Under the pieces are notes generated by a model that worked only from the letters and a program-made list of their open reading frames with translations, had not been told where the DNA came from and did not search any database. 64,000 nt of DNA, taken from assembly GCA_002688105.1 (NCBI GenBank), contig NZBQ01000016.1:30851-94850 (forward strand), written 5' to 3'. Every line of letters begins with the position of its first letter. Position 1 is the first letter of the stretch. The position numbers and the translations under genes are program-made. Source of the stretch: Dehalococcoidales bacterium (lineage in GTDB: Bacteria > Chloroflexota > Dehalococcoidia > Dehalococcoidales > GCA-2688105). Shown piece by piece: positions 8,998 through 37,062 of the stretch.

Positions 8998-10212
8998 ATG
9001 CGGGAATGGTTTATTACTTACGGGGTATGGATATTAATTGCCGTGGTGGTGGGGTTCATCCTCTTCTACCTTCTCCGGCGCTGGGCGCCCCACATTGTAG
9101 AAAAAGTCGTGCCTAAGCAGTGGCAAGAGCAACTGAAAGGCAGCCAGAGGGTAGTCACCTGGGTCATTATAGGTATCGGCGGGGTGATACTAGCCCTGGC
9201 GGTAACTGCCGTTATTGTCTCCCGCTATGGGGTAGACGTCACACCAGCTCTGAAAACGGTAGGCGGCTGGCTCTTGGAGCACGGTGTTCCCATTCTCATC
9301 ATCATTTTGCTGTCATTTCTAACCCACCGGGTAGTTAAGGTAGCCATGCCCCGGCTAATAGAGAGGGCAATCACAATAAGAGGCAGGGGGCGCCGTGCCA
9401 AGGGAGAATTAGCCAAGAGGGCACATACACTAAGTGGTTTTCTTACTACCGCTATTGGTGCCGTCATCATAATAGTCGCTATATTCATGCTTCTTTCCGA
9501 GGTGGGTATAGACATTACCCCTCTCCTGGCTGGAGCTGGAGTTGCCGGTATCGCCTTAGGTTTTGGTGCCCAAAGCCTGATCAGAGACTTCCTCAGCGGG
9601 CTATTTATCATACTTGAGGACCAATACAGTAAAGGTGATGTGGTGCGGATTGCCGGTATCGCCGGTCTGGTGGAAGATGTCAGCCTGAGAAGAACCGTTC
9701 TCCGCGACCTTGATGGTATTGTTCACAGCATACCCAATGGCGAAGTTAAGACAGCGAGCAACTATACCAAAGAGTGGTCAAGGGTTAATCTGAACATCCC
9801 GGTAGCCTATGGTGAGGACCTTGACCGGGTGATAGAGGTCCTAAACCAGATAGGCAAAGAATTAGCCGCAGACGAAACCTTTGGTCCCATGATCATAAAA
9901 GCCCCCCAAGTGCTCAGGGTTGATAAGTTCGGAGATTCTGCCATTGAGATAAAGGTATTGGGCGATACCAAGCCGCTAAAACAGTGGGATGTAACGGGCG
10001 AACTGAGAAAGAGGGCTAAGAAAGCCTTTGATGAGGAAGGGATAGAGATTCCGTGGCCACACGTGAAGCTCTACTTTGGACAGAGCCAGCCTAATAAAGA
10101 CTTGACCTGTCCGGCTTGTTCTCATGTCAATCTTCACGGCAGTAAGTTTTGCGCCAACTGCGGTGCCAGCCTTAGCTCTCAAGCATACTCACCATCAGCA
10201 CCAGAATTATAA
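8998..10212 (+). CDS. MscS-family mechanosensitive channel with a C-terminal zinc ribbon
   Basis: TM helices plus an MscS beta-domain (GDVVRI.G..G.VEDVSLR.T.LRD.DG), with a tail CPACSHVNLHGSKFCANCG. Confidence 0.85.
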   Translation: MREWFITYGVWILIAVVVGFILFYLLRRWAPHIVEKVVPKQWQEQLKGSQRVVTWVIIGIGGVILALAVTAVIVSRYGVDVTPALKTVGGWLLEHGVPILIIILLSFLTHRVVKVAMPRLIERAITIRGRGRRAKGELAKRAHTLSGFLTTAIGAVIIIVAIFMLLSEVGIDITPLLAGAGVAGIALGFGAQSLIRDFLSGLFIILEDQYSKGDVVRIAGIAGLVEDVSLRRTVLRDLDGIVHSIPNGEVKTASNYTKEWSRVNLNIPVAYGEDLDRVIEVLNQIGKELAADETFGPMIIKAPQVLRVDKFGDSAIEIKVLGDTKPLKQWDVTGELRKRAKKAFDEEGIEIPWPHVKLYFGQSQPNKDLTCPACSHVNLHGSKFCANCGASLSSQAYSPSAPEL

Positions 10213-10870: not shown

Positions 10871-10946
10871 GGCGACGTGGCCAAGTGGTTAAGGCGGCGG
10901 TCTGCAAAACCGCTATTCACCGGTTCGAATCCGGTCGTCGCCTCCA
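10871..10946 (+). tRNA. tRNA-Cys (GCA), CCA encoded
   Basis: Hand-folded cloverleaf. The acceptor is GGCGACG/CGTCGCC, the anticodon arm is GCGGT-CTGCAAA-ACCGC, and the T arm is ACCGG-TTCGAAT-CCGGT. Confidence 0.9.
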
Positions 10947-11030: not shown

Positions 11031-11115
<85 letters not shown>

Positions 11116-11117
11116 GC

Positions 11118-11819
11118 TAATGTTAAGCAACTGGTAAGCAATTTCCTCAAGTCTCGACGAGAAGGGCTGTCACCTCGCACAATAGAGTTCTATAATGGTT
11201 ATCTCAGAAATGCTAACCATGTCATAGGACTCCAAGTTAACGGGCAGCATAAAGCCCAATTCCTTGATAGCCTTGTTTGCTTCTCTTAGAACTAATTGTC
11301 AATACTAACAAATCAGAGTAACGGAATTACATAACAGTCCACAGTATACTGTGAAGCTGCTTTGATGATTTTATTAAGATAATGGATATTGACATAGCCC
11401 AGAGTTACGTAAAGGTAATTGGTAAAGGACGAAAGGAAAGAATAGTTCCATTTTCCGGGATTACCAGAAGAGAATTGATTAAGTACATTAACCGCTATCG
11501 ACGGGACTTATGCGATACGGATTCGAGTTATTTATTTCCAGTAAAATATGATGGACATATTTCGGCCAACTGTATACAACAAATGATAAGGAGATTGGCT
11601 AAAAAAGTTGGATTGAAGAATGTAAAATGCCATCCTCACATATTCAGACATACTTTTGCGACCATGTTTCTGGCAAAGGGTGGCTCGCCTGTAATATTGA
11701 AGGAAATAATGGGGCATGAAAGCTTTCAAACCACTCAAAAGTATGTACATCCACAACAACAGGATTTACGGAGACAGCATATTAAGTACTCCCCAGTTGC
11801 GGACCTATTTGAAGAGTAA
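11118..11819 (+). pseudogene. Tyrosine recombinase (phage-type integrase) in two fragments, abutting tRNA-Leu
   Basis: Fragment 1 (to 11289) is a SAM-like N-domain (FLKSRREGLSPRTIEFY) with no start codon of its own. After a 92-bp gap, fragment 2 (11382-11819) carries GKGRKERIVPF, HIFRHTFAT and the catalytic-Tyr region TTQKYVH. The box I Arg region is missing. Confidence 0.75.
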
Positions 11820-11940
11820 ACTACGGTTGCACATTCTGGCTTGTTGTATAGTGGGAGGCAAGTTTCAACTTAAAGAGTGGTACAATTACTGGGGGCAGGG
11901 CAATGCTACTACCACAAGTCTGAAGCATAGGAGGAAAGAA

Positions 11941-13266
11941 ATGTCTGATTTTGATCCGCAGGTAATGAACAAAGCAGCGGAGTTGTTGCAAAACCTCATC
12001 CGGTTTGACACCACTAATCCGCCGGGTAACGAAGTACAATGTGTCAGCTATATAAATAGTCTGTTGACCGATGCTGGATTTGAAACCACCATCCTGGCTA
12101 GAGACTCGAATCGACCCAACCTGATTGCCCGTCTGAAGGGACGAGGCACGGCGGCGCCGTTGCTGCTCTACGGGCACGTGGACGTGGTCAGCACAGCCAA
12201 TCAGAGCTGGACACATCCACCATTTGAGGGAAAGATGATAGACGGCTACATCTGGGGACGAGGTGCATTAGACATGAAAGGTGGCGTAGCCATGATGCTG
12301 GCCGCTTTTCTTCGTGCCAAAGCCGAGGGCCTAACCCCAGCCGGTGATATTGTGCTGGCAATTTTGAGTGACGAGGAAACTGGTGGTGACTATGGAGCTA
12401 ACTACCTCGTAGAAAACCATGCCGAGCAGTTTGAGGGTATCCGTTATGCCATTGGGGAATTTGGCGGCTTTCCTATGTACATCGGGCAACAGAAGTTCTA
12501 TGCTATCCAAGTTGCTGACAAATGCTACTGCTGGATGAAGGTCATTCTGCGTGGGCCGGGTGGGCACGCCTCCACCCCTGTACGCAGTGGTGTTATGGCC
12601 AGACTCGCCAAGTTGCTGCAAAGCCTAGACCAGCACCGTCTGCCAGTACACGTTACCCCTGTGGCACGTCAAATGCTTGAATCAATTGCCGCAGCTATAC
12701 CTTCTCCCATGAATTCTGCCTTTCTACAACTTCTCGACCCAGCCCTGACGGACACTGTTCTGGATCAACTCGGCCTGCAGGGATTAATGTTCGATGCCAT
12801 GCTGCACAACACAGTAAATGCCACTGTTGTGCAGGGTGGGGAGAAAATCAACGTGATCCCCGGTGAAATTATCCTGAAACTGGATGGTCGCCTACTCCCA
12901 GGCTATACCTTTGATGACATGGTGGCTGAACTGCGCCCTATCATCGGGGACGACATCGAGCTGGAGATTATCCGGTACGATCCTACGATACTGGAGCCCG
13001 ACATGGGGTTATTAGACACCTTGGCAAGCATTCTACGCAAGGCCGACCCAGATGCAATTCCTGTACCTCTACTGTTGACTGCGACTACGGATGCGAAACA
13101 CTTCTCGAGGCTTGGCATTCAGACATACGGTTTCATACCCATGAACCTACCTGAGGAGTTTATCCTATTTAATCTCATCCACGCCGCTGATGAGCGAATT
13201 CCGGTAGAAGCAGTAAATTTTGGCGCTAATGCGATCTATGAAGCCTTACAGCTTTGTGGAGAATGA
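11941..13266 (+). CDS. M20-family metallopeptidase (ArgE/DapE/CPG2-like)
   Basis: LIRFDTTNPPGNE, LLLYGHVDVV, GRGALDMKGG and SDEETGG motifs. The start is ATG 11941, 6 nt after AGGAGG. The ORF-track start 11716 overlaps the integrase fragment. Confidence 0.8.
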   Translation: MSDFDPQVMNKAAELLQNLIRFDTTNPPGNEVQCVSYINSLLTDAGFETTILARDSNRPNLIARLKGRGTAAPLLLYGHVDVVSTANQSWTHPPFEGKMIDGYIWGRGALDMKGGVAMMLAAFLRAKAEGLTPAGDIVLAILSDEETGGDYGANYLVENHAEQFEGIRYAIGEFGGFPMYIGQQKFYAIQVADKCYCWMKVILRGPGGHASTPVRSGVMARLAKLLQSLDQHRLPVHVTPVARQMLESIAAAIPSPMNSAFLQLLDPALTDTVLDQLGLQGLMFDAMLHNTVNATVVQGGEKINVIPGEIILKLDGRLLPGYTFDDMVAELRPIIGDDIELEIIRYDPTILEPDMGLLDTLASILRKADPDAIPVPLLLTATTDAKHFSRLGIQTYGFIPMNLPEEFILFNLIHAADERIPVEAVNFGANAIYEALQLCGE

Positions 13267-13281
13267 TACTCTGTCTTAGCC

Positions 13282-13422
13282 TTAGCTCTTTCCAATCCTG
13301 AACATTTTAGTTCCACATGCGGGGCACACACCCTGAGTTGCGGGCCTACCATTCTTCATAGTTATGCTTCGAGCATCTTTCATTTCCCTTTTGGCCTTAC
13401 ATTTCACACAATACGCTTGCAT
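13282..13422 (-). CDS. DUF5679-like small zinc-ribbon protein (46 aa), below the ORF-track size cut-off
   Basis: MQAYCVKCKAKREMKDARSITMKNGRPATQGVCPACGTKMFRIGKS has two CxxC pairs, with a GGAGG RBS upstream. Confidence 0.65.
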   Translation of the reverse strand: MQAYCVKCKAKREMKDARSITMKNGRPATQGVCPACGTKMFRIGKS

Positions 13423-13592
13423 TTAATCTACCTCCTTTTTAGAGGAGAATAGACTATTCACAGGTAGGATGTCAATATTCTCCCCAAATTGCACCTTTGG
13501 ACGTTGTCACTCTAGTTCTTCACCAACACCACTTCCTTCTCAATGGTTGTAACTACATTCCGCACGCATAGGGTAATCCAATGTTCCTTAAG

Positions 13593-13754
13593 GTATTGAC
13601 AACTTCGTAACGATGTATGCATAGTGGATACGATTTTTAAAGCCAGAATCGACCAAAAATATTAAAGGGGGAGTATTGACAACTACAGTAACGATGTGTA
13701 CATAATGGACACGATTTTTAAAGCCAGAATCGACCAAAAATATTAAAGGGGGAG
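13593..13754 (+). repeat. Tandem duplication (80 + 82 bp) of promoter, leader and RBS upstream of the catabolic cluster
   Basis: Each copy begins GTATTGACAACT (-35 TTGACA) and ends with an identical 48 nt, CGATTTTTAAAGCCAGAATCGACCAAAAATATTAAAGGGGGAG. Only copy 2 is followed by the ATG at 13764. Confidence 0.85.
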
Positions 13755-13763
13755 TAGAGAAAA

Positions 13764-14639
13764 ATGGGAAAAATCAGCTATGTTTCGACGCCAAAACTCA
13801 ACGATTACAAGAAGCAGTTCGCGGAGCATCTCATCATGGAGCGTAAAAACGGAATCCTTCAGGTGCGCATGCACACCAACGGTGGACCCTTCAAATGGTG
13901 CTTTCAGGCGCACCAAGCGCTGGAGGAGGCTTGGTCTGTGATCGGACACGACCGTGAAAACGAGCTGCTGATCCTGACCTCCACCGATCCGTACTGGGTA
14001 GGAAAATTTGACTGCGAGGCGTTTGGGGAAACTGAGGCTAATTATACTCCGGATACACATTACGATGCACTATACCGTGGGTGCACTAAGTTAGTGGAAA
14101 ATTTCATTTTCGACATCGATATTCCCACCATCGCCGCGATCAACGGGCCTGGCCTTCACTGGGAGTTTGCATTGTTAAGCAATGTCACCCTCTGCACGCC
14201 AGACTTCGTGTTACGAGATGACCATTTCAAGGGTGGAGTTGTGCCGGGTGACGGCATGAGTCTGTGTTTACAGGGCCTGCTCGGCATCAAGCGTGCCGCC
14301 TCCATGATGTACACGTTGAAAAGCATCGATGCTAAAACCTGCCTGGACTGGGGGGTTGTAAACGAGGTCATTCCGAGGGATAAGCTCTTGGGTCGTGCCT
14401 GGGATATCGCCGAAGAAATCATGAAGCAACCTCGAGTGGTCCGTCGCCTGACGAGCCAGCTCTTGAGGCGTCCCTGGAAACGTCTCCTTGTGGATGACTT
14501 TCAGGTCCACGTTGGTCACGAGATGTATGGCTACGCCCTGTTAGATACGAGGCATCCCAACATTTTTCCGGCGATTGAAGAAACCTTCCGGGCAGAGGCA
14601 GAGGCAGGGCAAGACTCGCAGGATCAGGAAAGCCCATGA
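13764..14639 (+). CDS. Crotonase-fold protein (enoyl-CoA hydratase/isomerase family)
   Basis: 291 aa with the family layout (LILTSTDPYW.GKFD, AAINGPG..., ...GDGMS...G...A..M.). Confidence 0.7.
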   Translation: MGKISYVSTPKLNDYKKQFAEHLIMERKNGILQVRMHTNGGPFKWCFQAHQALEEAWSVIGHDRENELLILTSTDPYWVGKFDCEAFGETEANYTPDTHYDALYRGCTKLVENFIFDIDIPTIAAINGPGLHWEFALLSNVTLCTPDFVLRDDHFKGGVVPGDGMSLCLQGLLGIKRAASMMYTLKSIDAKTCLDWGVVNEVIPRDKLLGRAWDIAEEIMKQPRVVRRLTSQLLRRPWKRLLVDDFQVHVGHEMYGYALLDTRHPNIFPAIEETFRAEAEAGQDSQDQESP

Positions 14640-14715
14640 GATTGTTAGTAGTGATGACCTCCGGGGTACGAAATAGTTGTGGTGAATAGATCGTTAACAT
14701 AACATAAGGAGAGGA

Positions 14716-15576
14716 ATGAAACCTTTTGAATATTTAGCACCGAGAAGTATTTCTGAGGCATGTGCTATGCTCTCAGAACATACGGAGGAGGCAAAGTTAC
14801 TTGCTGGAGGGCAAAGTTTATTGTTTTTGCTTGAGCAGAGGCTGATTACTCTTCGACACGTTATAGATATTAAGAAACTCACCCAATTAGATTATATTAA
14901 ACGTGGACAAAATAGTTTGAAGATAGGTGCATTAACCACTCAACGTACTTTAGAACTCTCCCCATTAGTCCAAGAGAAATTTCCTATACTACGTCAGATG
15001 GAAAGAGTGGCGGCACCAATACAAGTTAGAAATTGGGGAACTATAGGAGGTAGTCTTTGTCATGCTGAACCCTCCGGAGATCTAGGCGTTGCCTTAATCG
15101 CTCTAGGAGCAAAAGTCCGGGCAGTAAGTGATAGAGGTGAGCGGGAAGAACTCTTAGAGAATTTTTTTGTTGATTATCTTGAAACTATACTTAAGCCTGA
15201 TGAGATATTAACTGAAGTTGAAGTGCCTACCTTGTTACCTCATACAGGAAGCACTTATATTAAGGAGAGTAGGATGTTTGGGGGGTTCGCTATCGTCTCT
15301 GTTGCGGTAATAGTAACCTTGAATAGAGATACGATAAGTGACGCCCGAATTGTACTAGGAGGAGTAGGCCCTACATATGTAAGGACAAGACAGGCAGAGG
15401 AATATTTGAAGGGGAAGAGGACAAAAGGAAAGTTTGAAGAAGTAGGTACGCTAGCAGCCAACGAGGTACACCCAAGTTCAGATATGGAGGGTTCCGCAGA
15501 GTATAAGTGCCATATTGCAAGGATCATTGTAAACGAGGCTGTAGTTCGATCTATTAAGCAAGCAACGTTTATGTGA
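14716..15576 (+). CDS. Molybdenum hydroxylase FAD-binding (medium, CoxM/CutM-like) subunit
   Basis: LLAGGQSL and GTIGGSLCHAEP motifs in 286 aa. There is no Cys-rich insertion of the HcrB type. Confidence 0.85.
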   Translation: MKPFEYLAPRSISEACAMLSEHTEEAKLLAGGQSLLFLLEQRLITLRHVIDIKKLTQLDYIKRGQNSLKIGALTTQRTLELSPLVQEKFPILRQMERVAAPIQVRNWGTIGGSLCHAEPSGDLGVALIALGAKVRAVSDRGEREELLENFFVDYLETILKPDEILTEVEVPTLLPHTGSTYIKESRMFGGFAIVSVAVIVTLNRDTISDARIVLGGVGPTYVRTRQAEEYLKGKRTKGKFEEVGTLAANEVHPSSDMEGSAEYKCHIARIIVNEAVVRSIKQATFM

Positions 15577-15600
15577 AAAAACAAAGGCAGGTCATTAAAA

Positions 15601-16065
15601 GTGAAACAAGAGTTTGAATTCATATTAAATGGGGAAATCTGCGATGCTTATATTGAACCATGGCACTCCTTGTTAGATCTATTACGAGAGCAGTTCGCTC
15701 TAACTGGGGCAAAATCAGCGTGTCAATCAATGACGTGTGGTGCGTGCACTGTTCTTGTTGATGGTAAAGCTGTGAGGAGTTGCTCGATACTTGCACCTCA
15801 GGTGGAAGGAAGACATGTTGTTACTATAGAAGGGTTAGGTGGGGAAGACGGATTAGATCCTCTCCAGCAGGCTTTTATAGACCACTTTGCAGTACAATGT
15901 GGCTTCTGTACGCCAGGCATGATATTGACCGCTAAAGCCTTACTAGATGAAAACCCTAATCCCACAGAGGAAGAGGTGAGAATGCACCTAACCGGGAATT
16001 TATGCCGCTGTACCGGATACGTAAAAATAGTAGAGGCGATTCTGGCGGCTAGAAAAAAGGACTGA
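15601..16065 (+). CDS. Molybdenum hydroxylase [2Fe-2S] (small, CoxS-like) subunit
   Basis: Two cluster motifs are present: CQSMTCGACTV...C and QCGFCTPGM...CRCTGY. GTG start. Confidence 0.9.
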   Translation: MKQEFEFILNGEICDAYIEPWHSLLDLLREQFALTGAKSACQSMTCGACTVLVDGKAVRSCSILAPQVEGRHVVTIEGLGGEDGLDPLQQAFIDHFAVQCGFCTPGMILTAKALLDENPNPTEEEVRMHLTGNLCRCTGYVKIVEAILAARKKD

Positions 16066-16067
16066 CA

Positions 16068-17441
16068 GTGAAAACAATTATTGAACCCTTCCGAATTAAA
16101 TCCGTTGAGCCCATTACAATAAGTAACAGAGCTGCACGGGAATATTATCTGAAAGCTGCGCATCATAATCTGTTTCTCATACATTCAAGGGATGTAATTA
16201 TAGATCTCCTCACTGATTCCGGTACTGGAGCGATGAGCAGCGAACAATGGGCAGGTATTATGCGGGGAGATGAGAGTTACGCCGGCAGTATCAGTTTTCA
16301 GAGATTTGAACGGGTAGTCCAGAATATCTGGGGGTTTGAATACATTATACCAACTCATCAGGGACGTGCTGCTGAGCGGATATTATTTTCGGTGATATGC
16401 AAACCGGGTGATATTGTACCTAATAACACTCATTTTGATACTACCCGGGCAAATGTAGAATTTCAGGGTGCTGAAGCGCTGGATATTCCTATCCCTGAGA
16501 GCAAAGTTCCTGATATGTATCATCCATTCAAAGGTAATATTGACACTGATCAACTGAAAAAAGTGATCAAAAAGAATGGCATTAAAAAAATCCCTTTGAT
16601 AATGCTGACGATTACAAACAATGCCAGAGGTGGACAGCCCGTATCCATGGAGAATATTCGAGAGACATCTGAAATAGCAAAAGAATTCGGAATTCCGCTA
16701 TATCTGGATGCATGCCGATTTGCAGAAAATGCCTGGTTTATAAAACAGCGTGAAAATAGCTACCATGATAAATCCATCAAATCAATCGTATCAGAAATGT
16801 TTTCCTATGCCGATGGATGCACCATGAGTGCAAAAAAAGATGGTATCGCCAATATTGGCGGGGTATTATGTTCTAATGACAAGGAATTAGCCAAAAAAGA
16901 AAAGGATTTGCTAATTCTTACTGAAGGCTTTCCAACATATGGAGGACTTGCAGGCAGAGACCTAGAAGCAATTGCAATCGGTCTGGGAGAAGCAATGGAT
17001 GAAGATTACCTTCAGTACAGGATTTCATCAACCCAGTATCTGGGGGAACATTTACTGAAAGCAGGGGTACCCATTTTGCAACCCCCCGGCGGGCATGCTA
17101 TTTATATTGATGCTAAAACAATGCTGCCCGATATTAAACCTGAAGAATTCCCCGGTCAATCACTGATTTGTGCATTATACAAAGAAGCAGGAATCCGCGC
17201 AACGGAAGTAGGTAGTGTGATGTTTGGTAAGAAAGATAAACAAACCGGCAAAGAAATCCAAGCAGATATGGAACTGGTTCGGTTGGCAATACCACGGCGT
17301 ACTTATACTCAAAGTCATATTGATTATGTCATTGAAGCAATTTTGCAAGTAAACGAAAGAAAGGAAAATTTACGGGGATTGAAAATGACATACCAAGCAG
17401 AGTATCTCAGGCATTTTTCAGCACAGTTCAAACCGTTGTGA
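16068..17441 (+). CDS. tnaA: Tryptophanase-type beta-eliminating lyase (tryptophan indole-lyase)
   Basis: EPFRIKSVEP, DLLTDSGTGAMS and the PLP-Lys motif MSAKKDG. HFDTT (Asp) and LRHFSAQF (His) occupy the positions that distinguish tryptophanase from tyrosine phenol-lyase. The GTG start lies 2 nt after the small-subunit stop. Confidence 0.75.
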   Translation: MKTIIEPFRIKSVEPITISNRAAREYYLKAAHHNLFLIHSRDVIIDLLTDSGTGAMSSEQWAGIMRGDESYAGSISFQRFERVVQNIWGFEYIIPTHQGRAAERILFSVICKPGDIVPNNTHFDTTRANVEFQGAEALDIPIPESKVPDMYHPFKGNIDTDQLKKVIKKNGIKKIPLIMLTITNNARGGQPVSMENIRETSEIAKEFGIPLYLDACRFAENAWFIKQRENSYHDKSIKSIVSEMFSYADGCTMSAKKDGIANIGGVLCSNDKELAKKEKDLLILTEGFPTYGGLAGRDLEAIAIGLGEAMDEDYLQYRISSTQYLGEHLLKAGVPILQPPGGHAIYIDAKTMLPDIKPEEFPGQSLICALYKEAGIRATEVGSVMFGKKDKQTGKEIQADMELVRLAIPRRTYTQSHIDYVIEAILQVNERKENLRGLKMTYQAEYLRHFSAQFKPL

Positions 17442-17610
17442 TTATTTAAAACGGAAAACGTAATGCTTGAAATGTAAAGGTAGTCGTTAACTATTTTTCA
17501 TATCTTCTCCTATTTATGTTGTAAATATTCACGTTTTATCCAAGAGGTCCAGATGGGACTCTCAAGGAAATCTGGTTATTATTTCCAGGAATTTTGAAAG
17601 GGAACGGAAA

Positions 17611-19962: not shown

Positions 19963-20138
19963 AGTGGGCTCGATTAGGAACTATCTGTGATAGAACGAGA
20001 TGGTAAATAGAAGTCCCATAATTACTAGAGTGCTGTAACGCTTAATCGATGATTTAATTATGAAGGAGGGAGTTGCCTATGAAGGAAGGATAATTCTAGA
20101 TTTATTAGGTACTAATAGAAAATAGGAGGTTACGATAA

Positions 20139-21335
20139 ATGAAAAAAAGAATGTTAATGCTACTGATTGCAGTGGTAGTGGTAACGAGCTTGGTTATTGC
20201 TGGTTGTGCGGCCCCAGCACCAGTGGAGAAATCACCAATAAAGATTGGTTTTGTTACCGACTACACCGGTTTCTTGGCTATTTATGGCCCGAAATGGGTA
20301 GCAGGCTTCGACCTTGCGTTCAAAGAGATCGGATGGGAAATCGCCGGTAGGAAGATAGAGGTAATATATGAAGACGGGGCAACCGACGAGACTATTGGCC
20401 TTGAGAAGGCAAAGAAGCTAGTGGAAGGTGACGAGGTAGACATCCTATATGGACCGGTTCACTCGTCAACGGTTAATGCTATTGCCCCCTATGCTACGAA
20501 CATGAAGATACCCTATGTGTTGTGCTTGGATAATGAGGTCGTACTTGAGAAATATGAGTATGTTTTTAACCCATTAGGGACCCTGCAGCAGCACTCTTCT
20601 CACTCAGGCACATATGCCTATGAACAGGGCTGGAGGACAGCTTCAATAATAACTCTCGATATGTTGGAGGGACATCTTTTCATGGAAGGCTTCAAAACTA
20701 TGTTTGAAGGGGCTGGCGGGACAATAGTTCAGGAGCAATATACAGACATGGCCACTGTAGATTTTGGCCCCTACCTAGCGAATCTAAAGGATGTCGATGT
20801 AGTAGCGGCGTGGTATCCAGGACCAGCAGGGCCGACGTTCGTTAAGCAGTATAACGAATATGGGTTTCTCGGGAGAGTACCGCTGTTAAGTGTAGTTCCC
20901 AGCGGTTGGATTGTGCCGGTAGAATTTCTCGAGGAACTTGGTGACTTAAGTGTAGGCTTACAGAGTGCAATCATCTACAGCAACGAAATTGACACACCCG
21001 CTAACAAGGCATTCATAGAGTCATCTCTTAAGTACTATGATAAGATGCCTTACTGGGAGGAGGCTGTGGCTTACGCAAGTGCTTCAGTAATTATTGAAGC
21101 ACTAAAAGCAACCGGAGGGGATACTGATCCTGAGAAAATACGCGAAGCTATCGAAACGATGGAGATCGAAACTCCCTTTGGCTCCTTACGCTTCGTTGAT
21201 AGGCCAGCGAGGTTCGCGGCTTATCCGGGGTACATCGTAGAAGTGGATAGAGTTAATGGCGAATGGATCCACCGTATAGTCGCTGAATATGATACTCATC
21301 CGCTAGACGGGATTGCTGAATACCCACCGAAATAG
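20139..21335 (+). CDS. ABC transporter substrate-binding lipoprotein (Leu/Ile/Val-binding protein family)
   Basis: Signal peptide plus lipobox LVIAGC, with type-I periplasmic binding fold sequence features. Confidence 0.85.
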   Translation: MKKRMLMLLIAVVVVTSLVIAGCAAPAPVEKSPIKIGFVTDYTGFLAIYGPKWVAGFDLAFKEIGWEIAGRKIEVIYEDGATDETIGLEKAKKLVEGDEVDILYGPVHSSTVNAIAPYATNMKIPYVLCLDNEVVLEKYEYVFNPLGTLQQHSSHSGTYAYEQGWRTASIITLDMLEGHLFMEGFKTMFEGAGGTIVQEQYTDMATVDFGPYLANLKDVDVVAAWYPGPAGPTFVKQYNEYGFLGRVPLLSVVPSGWIVPVEFLEELGDLSVGLQSAIIYSNEIDTPANKAFIESSLKYYDKMPYWEEAVAYASASVIIEALKATGGDTDPEKIREAIETMEIETPFGSLRFVDRPARFAAYPGYIVEVDRVNGEWIHRIVAEYDTHPLDGIAEYPPK

Positions 21336-21373
21336 TGGTTGAAGATGGTCGCCACTATCCAGAGGATATGCTA

Positions 21374-21433
21374 AAGCTAGGCAGATATAAGACACTGAAA
21401 ACACATCTGCCTAGCTTTATATGTGGTTTTTTG
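21374..21433 (+). terminator. Intra-operon hairpin / partial terminator after the binding-protein gene
   Basis: A 13-bp perfect stem, AAGCTAGGCAGAT...ATCTGCCTAGCTT, followed by TATATGTGGTTTTTTG. Confidence 0.5.
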
Positions 21434-21458
21434 ATTGCTCATCTTGGGAGTCAGTGAT

Positions 21459-22316
21459 ATGGAAGTTTTGTTGATAAATATTCTGAACGGACTTTCGTTC
21501 GGATTCATAATCTTCCTTTTGGGCAGTGGTTTATCATTAGTAATGGGCGTGTTAGGAGTTTTAAACCTAGCTCATGGTGCAATGGCTATGGTGGGCGCTT
21601 ATGTGGGAATATGGATAGCCCGGGCAACAGGCAATTTCTTATTAGGTGTTCTAGGAGGGGTGGTTGTTACCGGGCTTTTGAGCTTTGCGATAGAAAGATG
21701 GTTTTTACGCCGCCGTCATGGACTCATCCTTGATCAAGCATTGCTAACTGTGGGATTTCTCTATATTGCACAAGATGTGCTTCGCTGGATATGGGGACCA
21801 CATCCTCACGCGATCGATGCTCCTTGGATTTTTTCCGGCTCTATATTCATCGGGAAGCTGGGGTTCCCTACTTATCGTCTTGCACTTATGCTTATTGGGC
21901 TAATGGTGGCGATAGCTCTATATCTATTTGTGGAGAAGACCCGGACAGGTGCTATAATTCGAGCTGGGATGGATGACAAAGAAATGATAGTAGCATTGGG
22001 TGTAGACTACCAGCGAACTGCAACCTTGGTCTTCGTTCTTGGAGCAGGCTTAGCCGCCTTTGCTGGTTTCATGGGAGCGCCGGTGTTTGGAGCATACTTG
22101 ACTCTTGGGGTTGATGCCTTGCTTTTAGCAATATTTGTGGTCATTGTTGGTGGAATGGGGTCCGTGCAGGGGGCTTTTCTTGGGGCGATGGTAATCGGCC
22201 TCTTTGATGCTTTTAGTAAAGCCTATGTTCCTGATTTTTCCTGGCATATCCTTTATATTCTTCTAATTGTCATTCTGGTCTTAAGACCAGAAGGGCTTTT
22301 AGGAAAGAGGGTTTAG
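21459..22316 (+). CDS. Branched-chain-amino-acid-type ABC permease (LivH-like)
   Basis: The MEVLLINILNGLSFG start follows a GGGAG RBS (ORF track offers TTG 21435). It is a polytopic membrane protein. Confidence 0.85.
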   Translation: MEVLLINILNGLSFGFIIFLLGSGLSLVMGVLGVLNLAHGAMAMVGAYVGIWIARATGNFLLGVLGGVVVTGLLSFAIERWFLRRRHGLILDQALLTVGFLYIAQDVLRWIWGPHPHAIDAPWIFSGSIFIGKLGFPTYRLALMLIGLMVAIALYLFVEKTRTGAIIRAGMDDKEMIVALGVDYQRTATLVFVLGAGLAAFAGFMGAPVFGAYLTLGVDALLLAIFVVIVGGMGSVQGAFLGAMVIGLFDAFSKAYVPDFSWHILYILLIVILVLRPEGLLGKRV

Positions 22317-22317
22317 A

Positions 22318-23292
22318 GTGGCAAGGCTAGTTGTCGTGAGAAAACCTTGGTTTGTGAAGTTAGCGCCTTACATTATCAGTGCTATTGTCCTTGTCATAGT
22401 ACCGGCGTTTCTTCCTACGTATGTTCAAGGTATATTCACTAAGTTCGTAATTTTTGCGATATTTGCTATGAGTTTAGACCTTCTTTTTGGGTATGCCGGA
22501 CTTTACTCTTTAGGGCACGCGGCCTTTTTCGGTGTAGGAAGCTACACGACCGGCATCTTAATACTTCGTTTTGAAATAGACAGCTTCTGGGTCATTATTG
22601 CTATTGTTGTCCTGCTAAATCTTGTTATTGGTGCTGTCTTTGGAGCTATTGCACTTCGAGCATCTGGGGTATATTTCCTTCTTCTTACTGTCGCCTTGGG
22701 ACAGTTAATTTTTGTTACTGTGTGGAAATGGTATTCAATGACGGGAGGCAATAGCGGTTTGCCGGGTATACCTCGTCCAGAACTTGGCTTTCCTTGGGCT
22801 GCTTGGGACCCGGCCGGTTATTACTATTTCGTTTTGGGTTTCTTTGTCATTTGTTTTTTCTTACTACATCGAATCGTAAATTCTAGTTTTGGGCATACTT
22901 TGAAAGGCATTCAGGCAAATGCATTTCGGATGCGACACTTGGGTTATAACGTCTGGGGCTATCAGTATATCTCCTTTATCATTGCGGCAATATTCTCGGG
23001 AATAGCTGGTATGCTATTTGCATATTATATGGGTATTGCTGTTCCATCACATGCCGGTTTGACTAGCTCTATCCTTGTATTCCTCATGGTGGTTATTGGC
23101 GGTGCCGGTACACTTTTTGGCCCCGTTATAGGAGCTGGAGTGATAGTGCTTCTAGAGTTTTTTGTAAGCTTGTTAACCCCAGAGCATTGGCCTTTGGTCC
23201 TGGGGAGCATTTTTATCGCAACCATCATGTATTTTCGTGGGGGTTTAGGTGTCCACTTGCTAAAGTTCTGGCAAAGGATAAGGTATGACTAA
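22318..23292 (+). CDS. Branched-chain-amino-acid-type ABC permease (LivM-like)
   Basis: GTG start 1 nt after the LivH-like stop. GYAGLYSLGHAAFFGVG motif. Confidence 0.85.
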   Translation: MARLVVVRKPWFVKLAPYIISAIVLVIVPAFLPTYVQGIFTKFVIFAIFAMSLDLLFGYAGLYSLGHAAFFGVGSYTTGILILRFEIDSFWVIIAIVVLLNLVIGAVFGAIALRASGVYFLLLTVALGQLIFVTVWKWYSMTGGNSGLPGIPRPELGFPWAAWDPAGYYYFVLGFFVICFFLLHRIVNSSFGHTLKGIQANAFRMRHLGYNVWGYQYISFIIAAIFSGIAGMLFAYYMGIAVPSHAGLTSSILVFLMVVIGGAGTLFGPVIGAGVIVLLEFFVSLLTPEHWPLVLGSIFIATIMYFRGGLGVHLLKFWQRIRYD

Positions 23293-24040
23293 GGAAACGT
23301 TGAAAGTTGAAAACTTGTCAAAATCTTTCGGAGGTGCCCACGTACTGGAGGGCATTTTCTTCAGCGTAAAAGCTGGAGAATGTGTAGCGATAATCGGACC
23401 CAATGGAGCAGGGAAAACCACTTTGCTGAGTTTAGTTAGTGGTGAACTCCGACCCACAAGTGGTACAATATATCTTTTTGGTCAGATGGCTACTAATCAG
23501 AGCGTACAGCGTCGCGTTCGCCTTGGGTTAGGACGCTGTTTCCAAATAAATAGCCTCTTTCATGGCCTTACGGTGCTTGACAATCTTTTGCTAGCTCTCA
23601 AAAGCTCTCAGTCTCACTATTTCCAAGTGTTTCGGCCGATGACCACTTATACCAATTTACTTGTTGAAGCTAAGCAATTACTAAAATTCATTGGCTTACA
23701 GGAGAAAAAAAACGTGCTTATCAGCGACTTGTCTTACGGCGAGCAACGGCGACTAGAAGTTGCGCTCAGTCTAGCCACAAGGCCTAAATTACTATTATTG
23801 GATGAGCCGAGTGCTGGATTATCCAGCAATGAAGAAATTACCAGCCTTATCAACATACTTAGCGGCCTTACGAAAGACATCTCAATAGTTTTCTCTGCTC
23901 ATGATATGGACCTAGTTTTCCGTCTGGCTCATCGGGTCATTGTTCTTTACTATGGACAAATAATAGCCCAAGGAACACCTGAGGAAATTCAAGTCAATCC
24001 AAAAGTTCAAGAGATTTATTTAGGCGTTCAGGAGGAGTAG
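23285..24040 (+). CDS. ABC transporter ATP-binding protein (LivG-like)
   Basis: Walker A GPNGAGKTT, signature LSYGEQRR, Walker B LLLLDEP. It overlaps the preceding gene by 8 nt. Confidence 0.9.
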   Translation: MTKETLKVENLSKSFGGAHVLEGIFFSVKAGECVAIIGPNGAGKTTLLSLVSGELRPTSGTIYLFGQMATNQSVQRRVRLGLGRCFQINSLFHGLTVLDNLLLALKSSQSHYFQVFRPMTTYTNLLVEAKQLLKFIGLQEKKNVLISDLSYGEQRRLEVALSLATRPKLLLLDEPSAGLSSNEEITSLINILSGLTKDISIVFSAHDMDLVFRLAHRVIVLYYGQIIAQGTPEEIQVNPKVQEIYLGVQEE

Positions 24041-24067
24041 TTCAGTTTTTCAATAGGTGACCTTAAC

Positions 24068-24778
24068 ATGAAGATGTTAGAGATTAATGACGTTCATACA
24101 CATTATGGAGATGCTCATGTCCTGCACGGGATTTCGCTAGATGTTGAGGAGGGTTACACCACTACCATCTTGGGCCGCAACGGAATGGGAAAAACAACGA
24201 CCATTCGCTCAATCATTGGACTTACACCCCCACGCCGTGGCTCAGTTCGTTTCAAAGGGAGGGAAATCACCAACCTTCAGCCACATCAGATTGCTCGATT
24301 GGGTATCGGGTTAGTCGCCCAGGGGCGTCACATTTTTCCTTCACTGAGTGTGAAGGAAAACCTGTCTGTAGCAGCGCGAAGTAGAGGCAAAACTGGAGAT
24401 TGGTCTTTGGGAAGGGTTTATTCCCTGTTTCCGATTTTGAAAGAACGCGCCAATCTTAAAGGTAATCTCCTTAGTGGTGGGGAACAACAAATGTTAAACA
24501 TTGGTCGGGCCCTGATGACTAATCCACAGTTGCTTCTAATGGATGAGCCGTCAGAGGGCTTGGCGCCTTTGATCATTAAAGAAATTGAGCATGTTATCAC
24601 CGAGCTTAAAAGAGAAGGCCTCTCCATCTTACTGGCAGAGCAGAATCTGCGCTTGGGTTTAAGTATGGCTGATTATGTCTACATACTAGATAGAGGTAGA
24701 ATTGTATACGAATCTGTACCTGAAGAGCTAGAAAACAACGAGGAAATCAAGGCTAAGTATCTTGGAGTGACAAGTTAG
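24068..24778 (+). CDS. ABC transporter ATP-binding protein (LivF-like)
   Basis: Walker A GRNGMGKTT, signature LSGGEQQM, Walker B LLLMDEP. Confidence 0.9.
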   Translation: MKMLEINDVHTHYGDAHVLHGISLDVEEGYTTTILGRNGMGKTTTIRSIIGLTPPRRGSVRFKGREITNLQPHQIARLGIGLVAQGRHIFPSLSVKENLSVAARSRGKTGDWSLGRVYSLFPILKERANLKGNLLSGGEQQMLNIGRALMTNPQLLLMDEPSEGLAPLIIKEIEHVITELKREGLSILLAEQNLRLGLSMADYVYILDRGRIVYESVPEELENNEEIKAKYLGVTS

Positions 24779-24827
24779 TAGTTTGCAATACTTTTATAAA
24801 TATTGAAGTAGGGAGAGCTAATCAAAA

Positions 24828-25286
24828 ATGCTAATCGAGGGAAAGTTTACTTTAAATGCACCTATTCAAAAAGTATGGGATTTTCTACTTGAGCCGGGGA
24901 CATTGGCTTCCTGTATTCCAGGGGCAGAAGAAGTCAACGCTGTTGATGACAAGACATACGAAAGTATAGTGAAGCAGAAAGTTGGGCCTATTACAGTGAA
25001 GTTTAAATTTACCACGACTTTAACGGAAATGGAACCACCAAGATATTTGAAGGCAGTTGGCAAAGGAGCCGATATCGGTAAAGCCGGGACATTTGCTCAA
25101 GAAACTTTTGTTTACCTGACCGAAATTTCCGAAGAAGAAGTGGAGGTTTCATATAAGTCCAATGTCAGCTTAGTTGGACGATTGGCCGTTTTTGGAGACC
25201 GGGTAATGCGAAGCAAATCAAAGTCGGTGGGAGAGGAGTTTACCAGAAATTTACAGGAGAAACTGAAAAGTGACCTGGCTAAATAA
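24828..25286 (+). CDS. CoxG-like SRPBCC protein (Mo-hydroxylase accessory subunit G family)
   Basis: 152 aa, MLIEGKFTLNAPIQKVWDFLLEPGTLASCIPGAE, the typical CoxG N-terminus. Confidence 0.75.
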   Translation: MLIEGKFTLNAPIQKVWDFLLEPGTLASCIPGAEEVNAVDDKTYESIVKQKVGPITVKFKFTTTLTEMEPPRYLKAVGKGADIGKAGTFAQETFVYLTEISEEEVEVSYKSNVSLVGRLAVFGDRVMRSKSKSVGEEFTRNLQEKLKSDLAK

Positions 25287-25354
25287 CGCAAGATTAATAT
25301 AATTCTGTTACAATGCTAGTAAAACTAGGTTCTGCTCTATTCCAGTATCTGTTT

Positions 25355-25837
25355 TCATAAAGAAGCGATATCCTCTTCGGCAAGGAGTTTCACTCCTTTT
25401 GCATGGAGTACCATACACGCCTTAAGCGGATCATCTACACGGAGGATAATAACTGCAAACCCTTCTTTCTTCTCAACCATAGCGTACATATATTCTACAT
25501 TCAAATGCTCTTGTGCGATTATCTCAAGCACGTCAGCCAGTCCACCCGGCTTATCGGCCACCTCAACAGCTAGGACATCTGTTTCGATAAAGTGATATTG
25601 TGCCTCGTTCAAAGCCTTCCCACATGCATCAGGATCTGCCGCAATAAGTCGTACTGTTTCAAAATCGCGAGTTCCCGCTAGAGACAACGCATGAAGGTTA
25701 ATGTCTCTATTTGCAAGGTGTCTTGCGATTTCAGCGAGACTACCGGGCCTGTTATCTAAAAAAACAGCTACCTGGCGTACCATAAATGATTTCTCGACCA
25801 TCTTTAGTACTACTCCTTCCAGTTCTTGACGGCACAT
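25355..25837 (-). CDS. Tandem ACT-domain protein
   Basis: Two ACT-like repeats (VAVFLDNRPGSLAEI.., LAVEVADKPGGLADV..). The likely start is the internal Met near 25801. Confidence 0.7.
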   Translation of the reverse strand: MCRQELEGVVLKMVEKSFMVRQVAVFLDNRPGSLAEIARHLANRDINLHALSLAGTRDFETVRLIAADPDACGKALNEAQYHFIETDVLAVEVADKPGGLADVLEIIAQEHLNVEYMYAMVEKKEGFAVIILRVDDPLKACMVLHAKGVKLLAEEDIASL

Positions 25838-25881
25838 TGAAAAGTACCATTAGACTATATCTCTTGGCGTGCAATACCCAG

Positions 25882-26829
25882 CTAGTTTCCCTTTTCAATG
25901 CTACACATGACTTTAGCCAAGGCAATCGAGTGTAACTTTTCATCTGCTTTTGCAGTCCGTGAATCAATTAATATTAGGACTTTTGCTCCTACTGCTACAT
26001 GGATCAACATTCGATTCCCATAATACTGGAGACATTTGCAAAATATATTACCAGCTTCAAGGTTTGGCATAATAATAATGTCCGCGCTCCCGGCTACAGG
26101 TGACTCAATCCCCTTAAGCCTTGTAGAGTTCATATCAATGGCGTTATCAAGGGCAAATGGTCCATCAATAACACAGTTTTCTACTGCACCGTCCTGACAC
26201 ATTTTAACTAGGGCAACGGCATCAATAGTAGACTGAAAATCAGGATGGACCTTTTCCGATCCTGAAAGGAGTGCAACCTTTGGCTTCCTTATTCCCAAAC
26301 CGTGTGCAACCGCTACTGCATTTTGGATGATTTCGAGTTTCTGCCTTATCCCCGGTGAAATATTGATACCTCCATCACTTACCAGCACAAGTTGGTGCCC
26401 ATGTCTCTTCTTATCCTCATACACCGCTACATCACTCAGCAAGCCTCTTCTAAGATCACTAGGTGAGCTGAGAACTACCTGGAGGAACTTTGAGGTAACA
26501 ACACCTCCCTTCATCAATATGTCTGCGCGTCCTGACTTCGCAACGTCTGTAGCTGCAGCGACTGCCCTTTGTGGATCCTTTTCGTGAATAATCTCAAAGT
26601 CTTTTGGATTGACCTCGAGTCCGTGAAGCATGGTAGTAATCCAATAACGGTCCCCCGCAAGAATAGGTACTGCGACGCCTAGTTCTTTTGCCTTGACTAC
26701 CGCTTTTAGTGTCTCTTGTTCGTCTGCAACCACAACAGAAACATATTTAAGGTCACCCTTTTGAGCCGTATTCAGCAACTCTTTGAAGTTTTTTATCATT
26801 TCTAGAAGCCTCCCTGGAGATACTAACAC
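25882..26829 (-). CDS. Phosphate acyltransferase (phosphate butyryl/acetyltransferase family)
   Basis: Pta/Ptb-fold pattern (ADEQETLKAV..A.ELG, VSDGGIN, PNLEAGNI). The likely start is MIKNF at 26799. Confidence 0.75.
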   Translation of the reverse strand: MLVSPGRLLEMIKNFKELLNTAQKGDLKYVSVVVADEQETLKAVVKAKELGVAVPILAGDRYWITTMLHGLEVNPKDFEIIHEKDPQRAVAAATDVAKSGRADILMKGGVVTSKFLQVVLSSPSDLRRGLLSDVAVYEDKKRHGHQLVLVSDGGINISPGIRQKLEIIQNAVAVAHGLGIRKPKVALLSGSEKVHPDFQSTIDAVALVKMCQDGAVENCVIDGPFALDNAIDMNSTRLKGIESPVAGSADIIIMPNLEAGNIFCKCLQYYGNRMLIHVAVGAKVLILIDSRTAKADEKLHSIALAKVMCSIEKGN

Positions 26830-27023
26830 ATTCAGTGATCAGCGAATCCTATCCTGCCTGCTCATAAGCCATGGTGACATTCTACCACACTAATAGGCTA
26901 TGACCTGACCCCAGTAATCAGTCCATCTTTAAAGTTAGTCCCATCGACACAATTGCTTATATTGTGACATCAGTAGTGATCAATTGAATTTGTAAGAGTT
27001 TAGCAGGTCTTACGTATAAATTA

Positions 27024-27053
27024 TTGACAACCGGGTCTTAAGTGTGGTAATAT
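27024..27053 (+). promoter_or_regulatory. Strong sigma-70-type promoter inside the relic
   Basis: TTGACA, an 18-nt spacer, then the extended -10 TGgTAATAT. Confidence 0.5.
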
Positions 27054-27202
27054 ACATAAAAGCCCTGAAAAGGGCTTTCGGTGTTTCTAGATAGGTTGTC
27101 AACCTGATTTTTCAAGCAATGTCAACCTGATTGTTTAAAAACTGAATAGATTTTGGGCCGGTCCCAGCTTCAAAAATTGGCCGGAATTTAAAAATGTGAC
27201 AA

Positions 27203-27249
27203 CCTGACTTTTAATCAGGGTGTCACAGGTTCGAGACCTGTACGGCCTA
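27203..27249 (+). other. 3' portion of a tRNA-Lys(UUU) (anticodon arm to discriminator); candidate att-site relic
   Basis: CCTGA-CTTTTAA-TCAGG, GTGTC, ACAGG-TTCGAGA-CCTGT, ACGGCCT-A. It is close to bacterial tRNA-Lys(UUU) from the anticodon stem onward. The upstream sequence has no D arm and only a 5-bp acceptor partner. Confidence 0.6.
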
Positions 27250-27264
27250 CACTCTCAGAAGACC

Positions 27265-27283
27265 ATCCCCGCCGGGGATTTTT
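27265..27283 (+). terminator. Small hairpin plus T-run after the tRNA-Lys-like segment
   Basis: ATCCCC-GCC-GGGGAT followed by TTTT. Confidence 0.4.
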
Positions 27284-27287
27284 CAAT

Positions 27288-27332
27288 AAAATCAGGGTGT
27301 CAAGACACTAGGTCAACCGACACCCTGATTTT
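27288..27332. repeat. Perfect 14-bp inverted repeat (AAAATCAGGGTGTC / GACACCCTGATTTT) with a 17-nt loop
   Basis: Read directly from the sequence. The arms carry the AATCAGGGTGTC motif that also occurs in the tRNA-Lys-like segment. It could act as a bidirectional terminator. Confidence 0.6.
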
Positions 27333-27524
27333 ATTGTTTCGAGAAGTAAAAGTCAAAAGTACCTATACAGATTATTTTTGCTAAGAGGTTGTGTTCGTAG
27401 GACGGGGAGATTGAGTAGAGTCGAACTATACCTGAAACAAGGATGCTATGCTTTGTTTAGTCCGGTTCCAGTCTAACATTATAACTGGACTCCTTTTTGG
27501 GGGGCAGGTCATTTCCATCTAATA

Positions 27525-36989: not shown

Positions 36990-37062
36990 AAGAGGGGCTT
37001 TGCCCCTCTTATAAAAAACAATCCCCCCTCTCCTTCGAAGGAGAGGGGGTCAGGGGGTGAGG
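36990..37062. repeat. Composite hairpin (REP-like) element, copy A (inverted relative to B and C)
   Basis: Module 1 is AAGAGGGGC-TTT-GCCCCTCTT. Module 2 is CCCCCCTCTCC-TTCGAA-GGAGAGGGGG, followed by GGGGGTGAGG. Confidence 0.75.

Follow-up and report, generated by a model that had tools for sequence, protein, structure and literature searches.

We analyzed a stretch of 64,000 nucleotides (the window in what follows) from an uncultured marine Dehalococcoidales bacterium (assembly GCA_002688105.1, contig NZBQ01000016.1, positions 30,851–94,850), and within it the region between 11116 and 27511, which starts at the 3' end of a tRNA-Leu(UAA) gene. This region is a decayed genomic island anchored at a tRNA gene, by itself of a known and ordinary kind, with a history more layered than had been proposed in the initial annotation of the sequence. 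It is probably an immobilised composite, built from the remnants of two different tRNA-specific integrative elements. Behind the tRNA-Leu stands the N-terminal fragment of one integrase (intX), followed by the C-terminal part of a second one (intC), and the far end of the island bears the 3' half of a tRNA-Lys(UUU) within a complex attachment (att) block. The loci and proteins used for comparison are referred to by our own L and P numbers.

The composition of the region is foreign to its surroundings. The GC content of the whole 64-kb window is 48.7%, that of 14701–27511 is 43.4% (versus 50.7% in the left flank and 50.0% in the right one), and between 10 and 28 kb the tetranucleotide distance from the remainder of the window about doubles, from ca. 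11–14 to 23–27. The initial annotation had judged by eye that the sequence from 14.7 to 27.5 kb was AT-rich, and both measures agree. At third codon positions (GC3) the genes in 14716–26829 have values of 0.32–0.47, compared to 0.54 ± 0.036 for the genes outside. The island is a compositional mosaic, with low-GC integrase remnants, a low-GC cluster at 14716–26829 and, between them, a gene for an M20 peptidase and another for an enoyl-CoA hydratase (ECH) that are host-like in both GC and GC3 and are thus the exceptions to the atypical composition.

Two integrase remnants behind tRNA-Leu

The left end of the island is made up of the following features:
10871–10946, + strand: tRNA-Cys(gca), detected by ARAGORN
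11031–11115, + strand: intact tRNA-Leu(UAA), the left anchor (ARAGORN; 57 bits with the Rfam tRNA model)
11116–11289, + strand: intX pseudogene, ca. 55 codons of an N-terminal SAM-like core-binding domain (57–69% identity to P0121, P0242, P0243 and P0244)
11281–11372, no strand: AT-rich filler of ca. 92 nt (ca. 30% GC), the fusion junction between the two integrase remnants
11373–11819, + strand: intC pseudogene, reduced to the 3'-terminal 149 codons; intC is third in an intA-orfB-intC module (PF00589; assigned by homology)

An integrase-like frame directly at the 3' end of the tRNA-Leu (11115) and without a start codon had already been pointed out, and this is what we found. The tyrosine recombinase frame begins 1 nt past the tRNA-Leu(UAA), continues open upstream into the tRNA, contains neither ATG nor GTG downstream of it and stops at 11287–11289, i.e., it is a pseudogene. 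With the N-terminal fragment alone a Pfam search gave no match even at E = 10, and its nature was settled only by searches for homologues. A word-index search returned one of them, P0121, 57% identical and itself truncated, and an exhaustive representative search returned 63 with identities of up to 69%, the longer of which bear a Phage_integrase domain including box I. Several of these homologues are open reading frames (ORFs) that gene callers extended through the upstream tRNA genes. That of P0243 translates a tRNA-Cys(GCA), a spacer, a tRNA-Leu(UAA), 60 nt and then the integrase, and those of P0246 and P0248 also read through tRNA-Leu(UAA) into intX; the tRNA was recognised in these ORFs by GACTTAAAATC and by its GGGTTCGAGTCCC...CGGCACCA end. 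Because the ORFs of the homologues run through tRNA-Leu(UAA), and P0243 shares the Cys-Leu-intX layout of the window, the intX family is associated with this tRNA, the 3' end of which is the attL-type junction of the family. Judging by these sequences, the adjacency of tRNA-Leu and integrase would be the natural one and not the product of a deletion into a tRNA-Lys integrase. We also sought a pair of attL/attR direct repeats of the same tRNA. As had been the impression by eye, no repeat of the tRNA-Leu 3' end was detected in the window beyond chance, and the far end of the island bears a tRNA-Lys 3' half in its place. Close to the right end, a weak repeat of the tRNA-Leu 3' part was rejected as being at chance level.

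The second piece starts after a gap of 92 nt between the two integrase ORFs (11290–11381). The ORF at 11382–11819 begins at a fortuitous ATG and matches positions 48–171/172 of the Pfam family Phage_integrase (PF00589), with HxxR and H...Y present; since the match begins at position 48, the box I Arg is missing. Both the gap and the lack of the box I region are therefore as first described. At the nucleotide level, the homology of intX ends near 11280 and that of intC starts at 11373. The C-terminal 145 aa are 90% identical to residues 188–332 of P0001, the best homologues are full-length Chloroflexota proteins of 322–346 aa, and the piece falls into a 90% cluster with full-length proteins of 328–354 aa. 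The closest full-length IntC proteins include P0306, P0309, P0311 and P0317, which share at least 90% identity with the remnant and are encoded on contigs of 12–23 kb. Over 11373–11850 the nucleotide identity to L021 and L023 is 76–79%, and the homology ends ca. 30 nt past the stop codon. In these relatives the gene is preceded by intA and orfB, both absent upstream of intC in the window, where the homology to the module begins at 11373 and only the last 149 codons of the intC-type recombinase are present.

The N-terminal piece belongs to neither of the two recombinases of that module. Its identity to IntA is only 33%, and it does not align with the N-terminus of IntC. The N-termini of IntA are well conserved among elements whose IntC is 70–78% identical to that of the window, and for this reason we rejected the fragment as the cognate IntA of the tRNA-Lys element. 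What was taken for one scarred integrase is thus, by these comparisons, a fusion of two pseudogenes of unrelated origin, a reminder that two adjacent pieces of integrase ORF need not be one broken gene.

The right end and the tRNA-Lys element family

The right end carries an att block (27059–27336) with these features:
27059–27078, + strand: terminator-like hairpin
27097–27109 and 27120–27132, + strand: two direct exact copies of TGTCAACCTGATT
27197–27225, + strand: putative core-type site TGACAACCTGA-CTTTTAA-TCAGGGTGTCA, as read from the sequence
27202–27250, + strand: tRNA-Lys(UUU) 3' half of 49 nt (attR-type fragment), spanning the anticodon stem through the discriminator base
27265–27279, + strand: hairpin followed by a T run, resembling an intrinsic terminator
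27284–27301 and 27319–27336, + strand: perfect 18-bp hairpin, each arm a copy of the core half-site AATCAGGGTGTC

The initial annotation had located at 27203–27249 a copy of 47 nt of the 3' part of a tRNA-Lys(UUU), in the orientation of the tRNAs at the left end. The copy is there and extends to 49 nt (27202–27250), which are 100% identical to L023 7245–7293, the 3' part of an intact tRNA-Lys(ttt), and 96% identical to L021. None of 100 shuffled sequences gave such a match. The Rfam tRNA model scores 27178–27249 with 31.6 bits (gathering score 29), and 27179–27247 has a tRNA-like fold without D-arm. An intact tRNA-Lys was not found in the 64-kb window. The core consists of two inverted half-sites of 11 bp, complementary at 10 of the 11 positions, around the 7-nt anticodon loop CTTTTAA. 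Its left half-site departs from the tRNA version (GAGCACCTGA) and resembles the accessory motif. From the anatomy of the site and from the border between L049 and L050 described below, CTTTTAA would be the overlap region in which crossover takes place.

To the left of the core, the block at 27059–27132 is 85–95% identical to L021 7260–7306, L023 7369–7411 and L042 9949–9985, and the paired TGTCAACCTGATT motifs are found in L049 and L050 as well. It is the counterpart of the accessory block found ahead of intA in intact elements; in the window we take it for arm-type sites or for what remains of a second copy that collapsed. To the right, 27208–27339 is 89.6% identical to L042 5099–5231, where the context is unrelated. 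The tRNA-Lys 3' half, the anticodon stem-loop core and the paired motifs are hence all present at the right end of the island. As the family of the C-terminal integrase fragment is tied to tRNA-Lys(UUU) and 27059–27336 holds the core and the motifs of this family, the earlier suggestion that the fragment is the displaced attR-type end of a now immobile island is a reasonable one. Six independent assemblies (L013, L014 and L016–L019) have contigs that break within ca. 100 nt of the tRNA-Lys fragment and the hairpin (27187–27294), and L014 terminates in a palindromic artefact at the hairpin. These breaks hint at heterogeneity in the population or at repeat-induced branching of the assembly graph at the att block.

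The intact module, with intC as its third gene, was found in L021, L023, L049 and L050 (IntA of 329–332 aa and OrfB of 439–455 aa). IntA and IntC are Xer-like tyrosine recombinases, both with the residues R...HxxR...H...Y in alignments, and OrfB has N-terminal helix-turn-helix (HTH) and coiled-coil signals. Searches of OrfB with Pfam, NCBIfam, PHROGs, PDB profiles and hhalign gave no similarity to recombinases, and its interpretation as a third divergent tyrosine recombinase, as in RIT or Tfp, was rejected on this sequence evidence (hhalign probability of 0.3% against the integrase alignment). In intact members of the family, the copied tRNA-Lys 3' half is followed by a terminator, the two TGTCAACCTGATT motifs, intA, orfB and intC, in this order. 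In L021 and L023 the module starts 129–132 nt 3' of an intact tRNA-Lys(ttt), and the interval up to intA holds the terminator hairpin and the two direct motifs with a spacing of 23 nt. In L042, L049 and L050 the recombinase genes come after the tRNA-Lys 3' half borne by the element, the terminator and the two motifs. With intact modules beside tRNA-Lys(UUU) or its 3' half, and the core and motifs at 27059–27336, the origin of the element in a tRNA-Lys that had been suggested from the sequence of the window gains support.

That the element is mobile is shown by L049 and L050, which are 99.98% identical over 5.2 kb from CTGA|CTTTTAA onward and differ in the DNA to the left. This divergence exactly at the left of CTGA|CTTTTAA indicates that the element carries the tRNA 3' half, has its left border at the anticodon loop and was recently mobile. 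The element in L049 (35) and L050 (1180) has a V4R protein, an amidase and an epimerase as cargo, and neither of the left flanks is a tRNA 5' half. The two flanks suggest insertion at a secondary site, or else a junction of circular or tandem type. In L042 the same fragment-terminator-motif block is followed by one integrase alone, similar to IntA, and the contig contains an intact tRNA-Lys and at least three further units of arm, CTTTTAA and tRNA-Lys 3' half on both strands (2608–2649, 5099–5370, 6745–7020 and 9690–10000). Such an array is what would be expected from serial integration, and looks like tandem accretion with inversion. Within this one contig there are two sequence variants of the tRNA-Lys 3' half. 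In addition, the T-stem of the element-borne halves covaries, with ACAGG/CCTGT or GCAGG/CCTGC among element variants (window 27226–27243, L021 7160–7177, L050 1202–1219), which fits selection for a tRNA that is functional again after integration.

A search of IMG/VR gave neither a relative of IntC nor the paired-motif pattern, and in a limited literature search we did not find a description of the intA-orfB-intC module. Tentatively, and with somewhat less than even confidence, we propose that the intC remnant marks an undescribed family of Chloroflexota elements, in which IntA and IntC flank an HTH/coiled-coil protein, the anticodon stem-loop of tRNA-Lys(UUU) is the target and the element brings its own covarying tRNA 3' half. 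Such a family would be a tRNA-targeting counterpart of SE, GInt and Tn554 elements outside Proteobacteria and Firmicutes and, together with the tRNA-Leu intX elements, may have a part in shaping the catabolic islands of abundant marine Dehalococcoidia comparable to that of tycheposons in Prochlorococcus.

Among the known elements with several recombinases are SE (intA-tfp-intB-srap), GInt (ginABCD), RIT (ritABC) and Tn554 (tnpABC), of which SE and GInt have been reported only from Gamma- and Betaproteobacteria (PMC10214605, PMC5385486). The tRNA-Lys family shares with all of them two catalytic tyrosine recombinases in one left-end operon with a non-catalytic protein between or beside them, cargo downstream and site-specific insertion, and differs from all of them in that it targets a tRNA anticodon loop and reconstitutes the tRNA. 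In the above searches OrfB did not show the tyrosine recombinase similarity that Tfp, GinC and RitB have. Unlike RIT, the module does not contain three adjacent tyrosine recombinase genes, the middle gene having only HTH and coiled-coil signals, and unlike SE and GInt we saw no fourth conserved gene similar to srap or ginD in it. Tycheposons, found in Prochlorococcus and other marine bacteria, target tRNAs and cause rearrangements that are confined to islands (bioRxiv 10.1101/2020.12.28.424599). In ecological terms the island is a parallel to them. The elements studied here resemble them in being marine and carrying cargo, in having tRNA-specific tyrosine recombinases with each integrase clade tied to one tRNA, in leaving partial tRNAs within islands, and in remodelling islands and causing rearrangements. 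They differ in the phylum of the host and in the two-recombinase module, and no primase or helicase (the replication module of tycheposons) was called beside the modules in L021, L023, L042 and L049.

History of the island and alternative explanations

The simplest history that fits the co-orientation and the order of all the parts is one in which two islands stood in tandem, in the same orientation, and were joined by a deletion. The first, at tRNA-Leu, would have carried intX, and the second, at tRNA-Lys, intA-orfB-intC and the cargo. The live tRNA-Lys element would have integrated by site-specific recombination within CTTTTAA, between the 11-bp inverted half-sites of the anticodon stem, supplying a new tRNA 3' half and displacing the old one to its far end. 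A deletion from about codon 57 of intX to codon 187 of intC would then have removed the remainder of the tRNA-Leu element together with its attR and, of the tRNA-Lys element, the attL, P' arm, intA, orfB and the start of intC, with the AT-rich filler of ca. 92 nt staying at the junction, and a further small loss would have taken the start of intX. On the left, the element targeting tRNA-Leu(UAA) would thus have left ca. 55 codons of intX directly after the intact tRNA. On the right, the element of the tRNA-Lys(UUU)-targeting Chloroflexota family would have supplied everything from codon 188 of intC onward, i.e., the rest of this gene, the cargo (M20, DUF5679, ECH and the 12-kb low-GC cluster) and the attR-type end at 27059–27336. 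The outcome would be an island that is no longer able to excise. All parts are indeed on the + strand and in the order expected for such a deletion. We infer here the order of the events, the crossover point and the arrival of the cargo together with the tRNA-Lys element.

The comparison with relatives brings in larger changes. All the near-identical Tara strain contigs carry the same island and scar. Among the relatives found with the adenine deaminase protein in genome and metagenome contigs, and through homologues of MscS at the other side, no clean empty site was found, because the synteny is broken at 10.18 kb (after MscS) and at 27.51 kb in every one of them. The island is missing beside the adenine deaminase gene in L029, L030 and L031 and beside MscS in L045–L047 and L052, with the synteny broken at both sides. 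In L029, the closest relative by adenine deaminase (95% aa identity), the neighbour gene is dnaX, and the homology begins at 27512, in agreement with the right border first set at 27511. L030 has other genes there. In L031 (77%) the place is taken by a DUF gene in decay and by a DUF5679 gene with homology to 13279–13497, and the low-GC cluster is missing. At the other side, MscS is followed in the 94% relative by DUF1015 and then the tRNA-Cys region, and in the 75–88% relatives by Aminotran_4, PlsY, aldolase, LexA, S20 and RelA, genes that the window does not contain.

Several observations weigh against a composite formed by deletion. The deletion loses a tRNA-Lys(UUU) gene and would be viable only with another copy elsewhere in the genome. 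The spacing of 15 nt between tRNA-Leu and intX (54–72 nt in the homologues) needs an additional small deletion. In the window the core has the two-motif block at its left, in the intact elements at its right. No single intact element was recovered with both of its ends, so that the attL/attR model rests on left ends and on the array of fragments in L042. The recurrence of 27208–27339 in L042 means that it may be element DNA, the arm of an older element, and not the native flank of a tRNA-Lys; the junction of island and chromosome would then lie 90–260 nt to the right of the tRNA-Lys fragment. The cargo is a mosaic in which some parts (the host-like M20 and ECH) may have come without the element. 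Lastly, no empty site is at hand, and the breaks after MscS and at 27.51 kb mean that larger rearrangements have occurred here.

The last of these points is also what speaks for the same two elements never having been adjacent, a larger rearrangement having joined distant islands, with an intact tRNA-Lys and the reciprocal junction elsewhere. Candidate events are a translocation, a large deletion, a recombination between islands or a nested integration into a tRNA-Lys-like secondary site on the tRNA-Leu element. The tRNA-Lys(UUU) is expected to be essential, the block of fragment, terminator and hairpin looks mobile itself, and in Prochlorococcus the tRNA-targeting tycheposons drive rearrangements confined to islands (10.1101/2020.12.28.424599). 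However, all parts are co-oriented, as a simple deletion gives and an inversion would not, since it would flip one of them; no reciprocal junction was seen, and more steps are required. We regard this course of events as rather unlikely. We consider it improbable that there is no single island at all, i.e., that the low-GC Cox/TnaA/Liv/Ptb cluster was acquired separately or is a long-standing resident, flanked by chance by old and unrelated scars, the integrase and tRNA fragments. The mosaic composition, the lack of an intact element with this cargo among those found and the DUF5679 gene of L031, 1.3 kb from adenine deaminase without the cluster, would be in line with it. Against this, the order of intC 3' end, DUF5679, cargo and att block matches that of the element family (L042, L049, L050), the atypical composition stops at the att block and at the 27511/27512 break of synteny, and two integrase remnants and an att complex would hardly surround by coincidence the only strongly atypical 12 kb of the window.

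Very improbable, in our view, is the original proposal of one element in a tRNA-Lys 3' of tRNA-Leu, from which a single deletion fused the tRNA-Leu end into its one integrase gene, the 92-nt gap being an internal scar. The orientation of the parts, the tRNA-Lys fragment at the far end and the tRNA-Lys association of the C-fragment family would all fit. However, the N-terminal piece is distant from IntA and IntC and is 57–69% identical to a separate family that follows tRNA-Leu(UAA), and the tRNA-Lys module has two recombinase genes and orfB instead of one integrase. The frame abutting the tRNA-Leu is thus intX, its natural neighbour, and not the inside of a tRNA-Lys integrase. What the tRNA-Lys element lacks in the window is more than an integrase 5' end, namely the tRNA, the P' arm, intA, orfB and 187 codons of intC. 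A composite of two tandem islands that underwent deletion, the history we favour, would explain the origin of the 12-kb cluster for amino acid and aromatic catabolism and transport and why it is now fixed in the genome. It would also imply that uncultured marine Dehalococcoidales have at least two lineages of tRNA-specific integrases that build and erode islands, for one of which (tRNA-Lys) there is now a precise core site, with accessory motifs, open to in vitro testing.

The window island is similar to the classical tRNA-targeting islands with a tyrosine integrase and crossover at the anticodon loop, the integration sites of which were reportedly classified by Williams in 2002. The shared traits are an integrase beside an intact tRNA, an element-borne tRNA 3' half, a displaced 3' fragment at the far end, cargo of atypical composition, immobilisation by decay of the integrase and tandem accretion that leaves fragments (L042). 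It differs in that its two ends come from two different elements and tRNAs, with no matching pair of direct repeats left, and the tRNA-Lys family uses two recombinase genes and an HTH/coiled-coil gene instead of int (and xis). Within the class Dehalococcoidia, Dehalococcoides mccartyi is said to have genomic islands targeted to ssrA (McMurdie et al. reportedly described them in 2011). They would have in common with the present case the site-specific tandem accretion at a small-RNA gene and the direct-repeat remnants, and would differ in the target (tmRNA vs. tRNA-Lys and tRNA-Leu), the recombinases and the cargo (rdh genes).

Cargo genes and neighbouring sequences

Between the intC remnant and the att block the following features were identified (annotation of the low-GC block by Pfam and NCBIfam):
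11941–13266, + strand: peptidase of the M20/ArgE-DapE family (GC 0.514, GC3 0.54)
13282–13422, - strand: DUF5679 zinc-ribbon protein of 46 aa
13593–13756, + strand: tandem duplication of 2 × 81 nt (92% matches) in the promoter-like and ribosome-binding-site region upstream of the ECH gene
13764–14639, + strand: ECH, a protein of the enoyl-CoA hydratase/crotonase family (GC 0.527, GC3 0.63)
14716–15576: Mo-hydroxylase FAD subunit
15601–16065: Mo-hydroxylase 2Fe-2S subunit
16068–17441: lyase of the tryptophanase/tyrosine-phenol-lyase family (NF009709, 695 bits)
17611–19962: Mo-hydroxylase Mo subunit
20139–24778: Liv-type ABC transporter
24828–25286: CoxG
25355–25837, - strand: ACT-pair protein
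25882–26829, - strand: phosphate butyryltransferase (Ptb)

The DUF5679 protein is 81% identical (aa) to the product of the gene directly after the integrase in L042, for which reason we argue that it belongs to the backbone of the element; its gene has a nucleotide identity of 78% to the L031 copy. The genes of the low-GC block (14716–26829, ca. 12 kb) have GC values of 0.41–0.47. The three-subunit molybdenum hydroxylase is of the xanthine dehydrogenase/4-hydroxybenzoyl-CoA reductase family, and the lyase gene is embedded between the genes of its 2Fe-2S and molybdopterin subunits (14716–19962), from which a coupled pathway may be suspected, acting on an aromatic amino acid or on its indole or phenol product. 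All strain contigs have the 81-nt duplication ahead of ECH.

Some repeats were found in and around the island. An exact inverted repeat of 39 nt has one copy at its right edge (27473–27511), directly 3' of the stop codon of the adenine deaminase gene and immediately before the start of the L029 homology, and the other, its 100% reverse complement, in an intergenic position 16 kb away (43517–43555). An imperfect inverted repeat that brackets the cargo (11867–11902 and 26901–26936, 26/36) was rejected, as Markov shuffles reach 24–26 matches. A hairpin-rich intergenic repeat family containing CCCCCTCTCCTTCGAAGGAGAGGGGG, similar to repetitive extragenic palindromes (REP), is present in multiple copies in the source genome and its relatives (window 36993–37068 and 48483–48560; L047 8307–8362, 9832–9880 and 16850–16928; L046 11–75).

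At the left side, the synteny with L045, L046, L047 and L052 ends inside the last ca. 30 nt of the MscS gene (10180–10212), the product of which has 404 aa in the window and 393–395 aa in the relatives. The gene downstream of MscS varies with the level of relatedness, being Usp, DUF1015 or Aminotran_4. There is a further breakpoint at 7646, from which L004, L006, L007 and L009 diverge leftward. Finally, L008 (3383–3776; assembly ERZ27286875) follows the window through the tRNA-Cys and the 5' half of the tRNA-Leu (11031–11071) up to GGACTTAAAATCC, diverges inside the anticodon loop and continues with 353 nt of unrelated sequence and a new ORF start, without reconstitution of the tRNA-Leu. A group I intron was rejected as an explanation of this divergence, there being no Rfam match, and L008 may represent a variant strain, a chimera or a recombination that took place at the anticodon loop.

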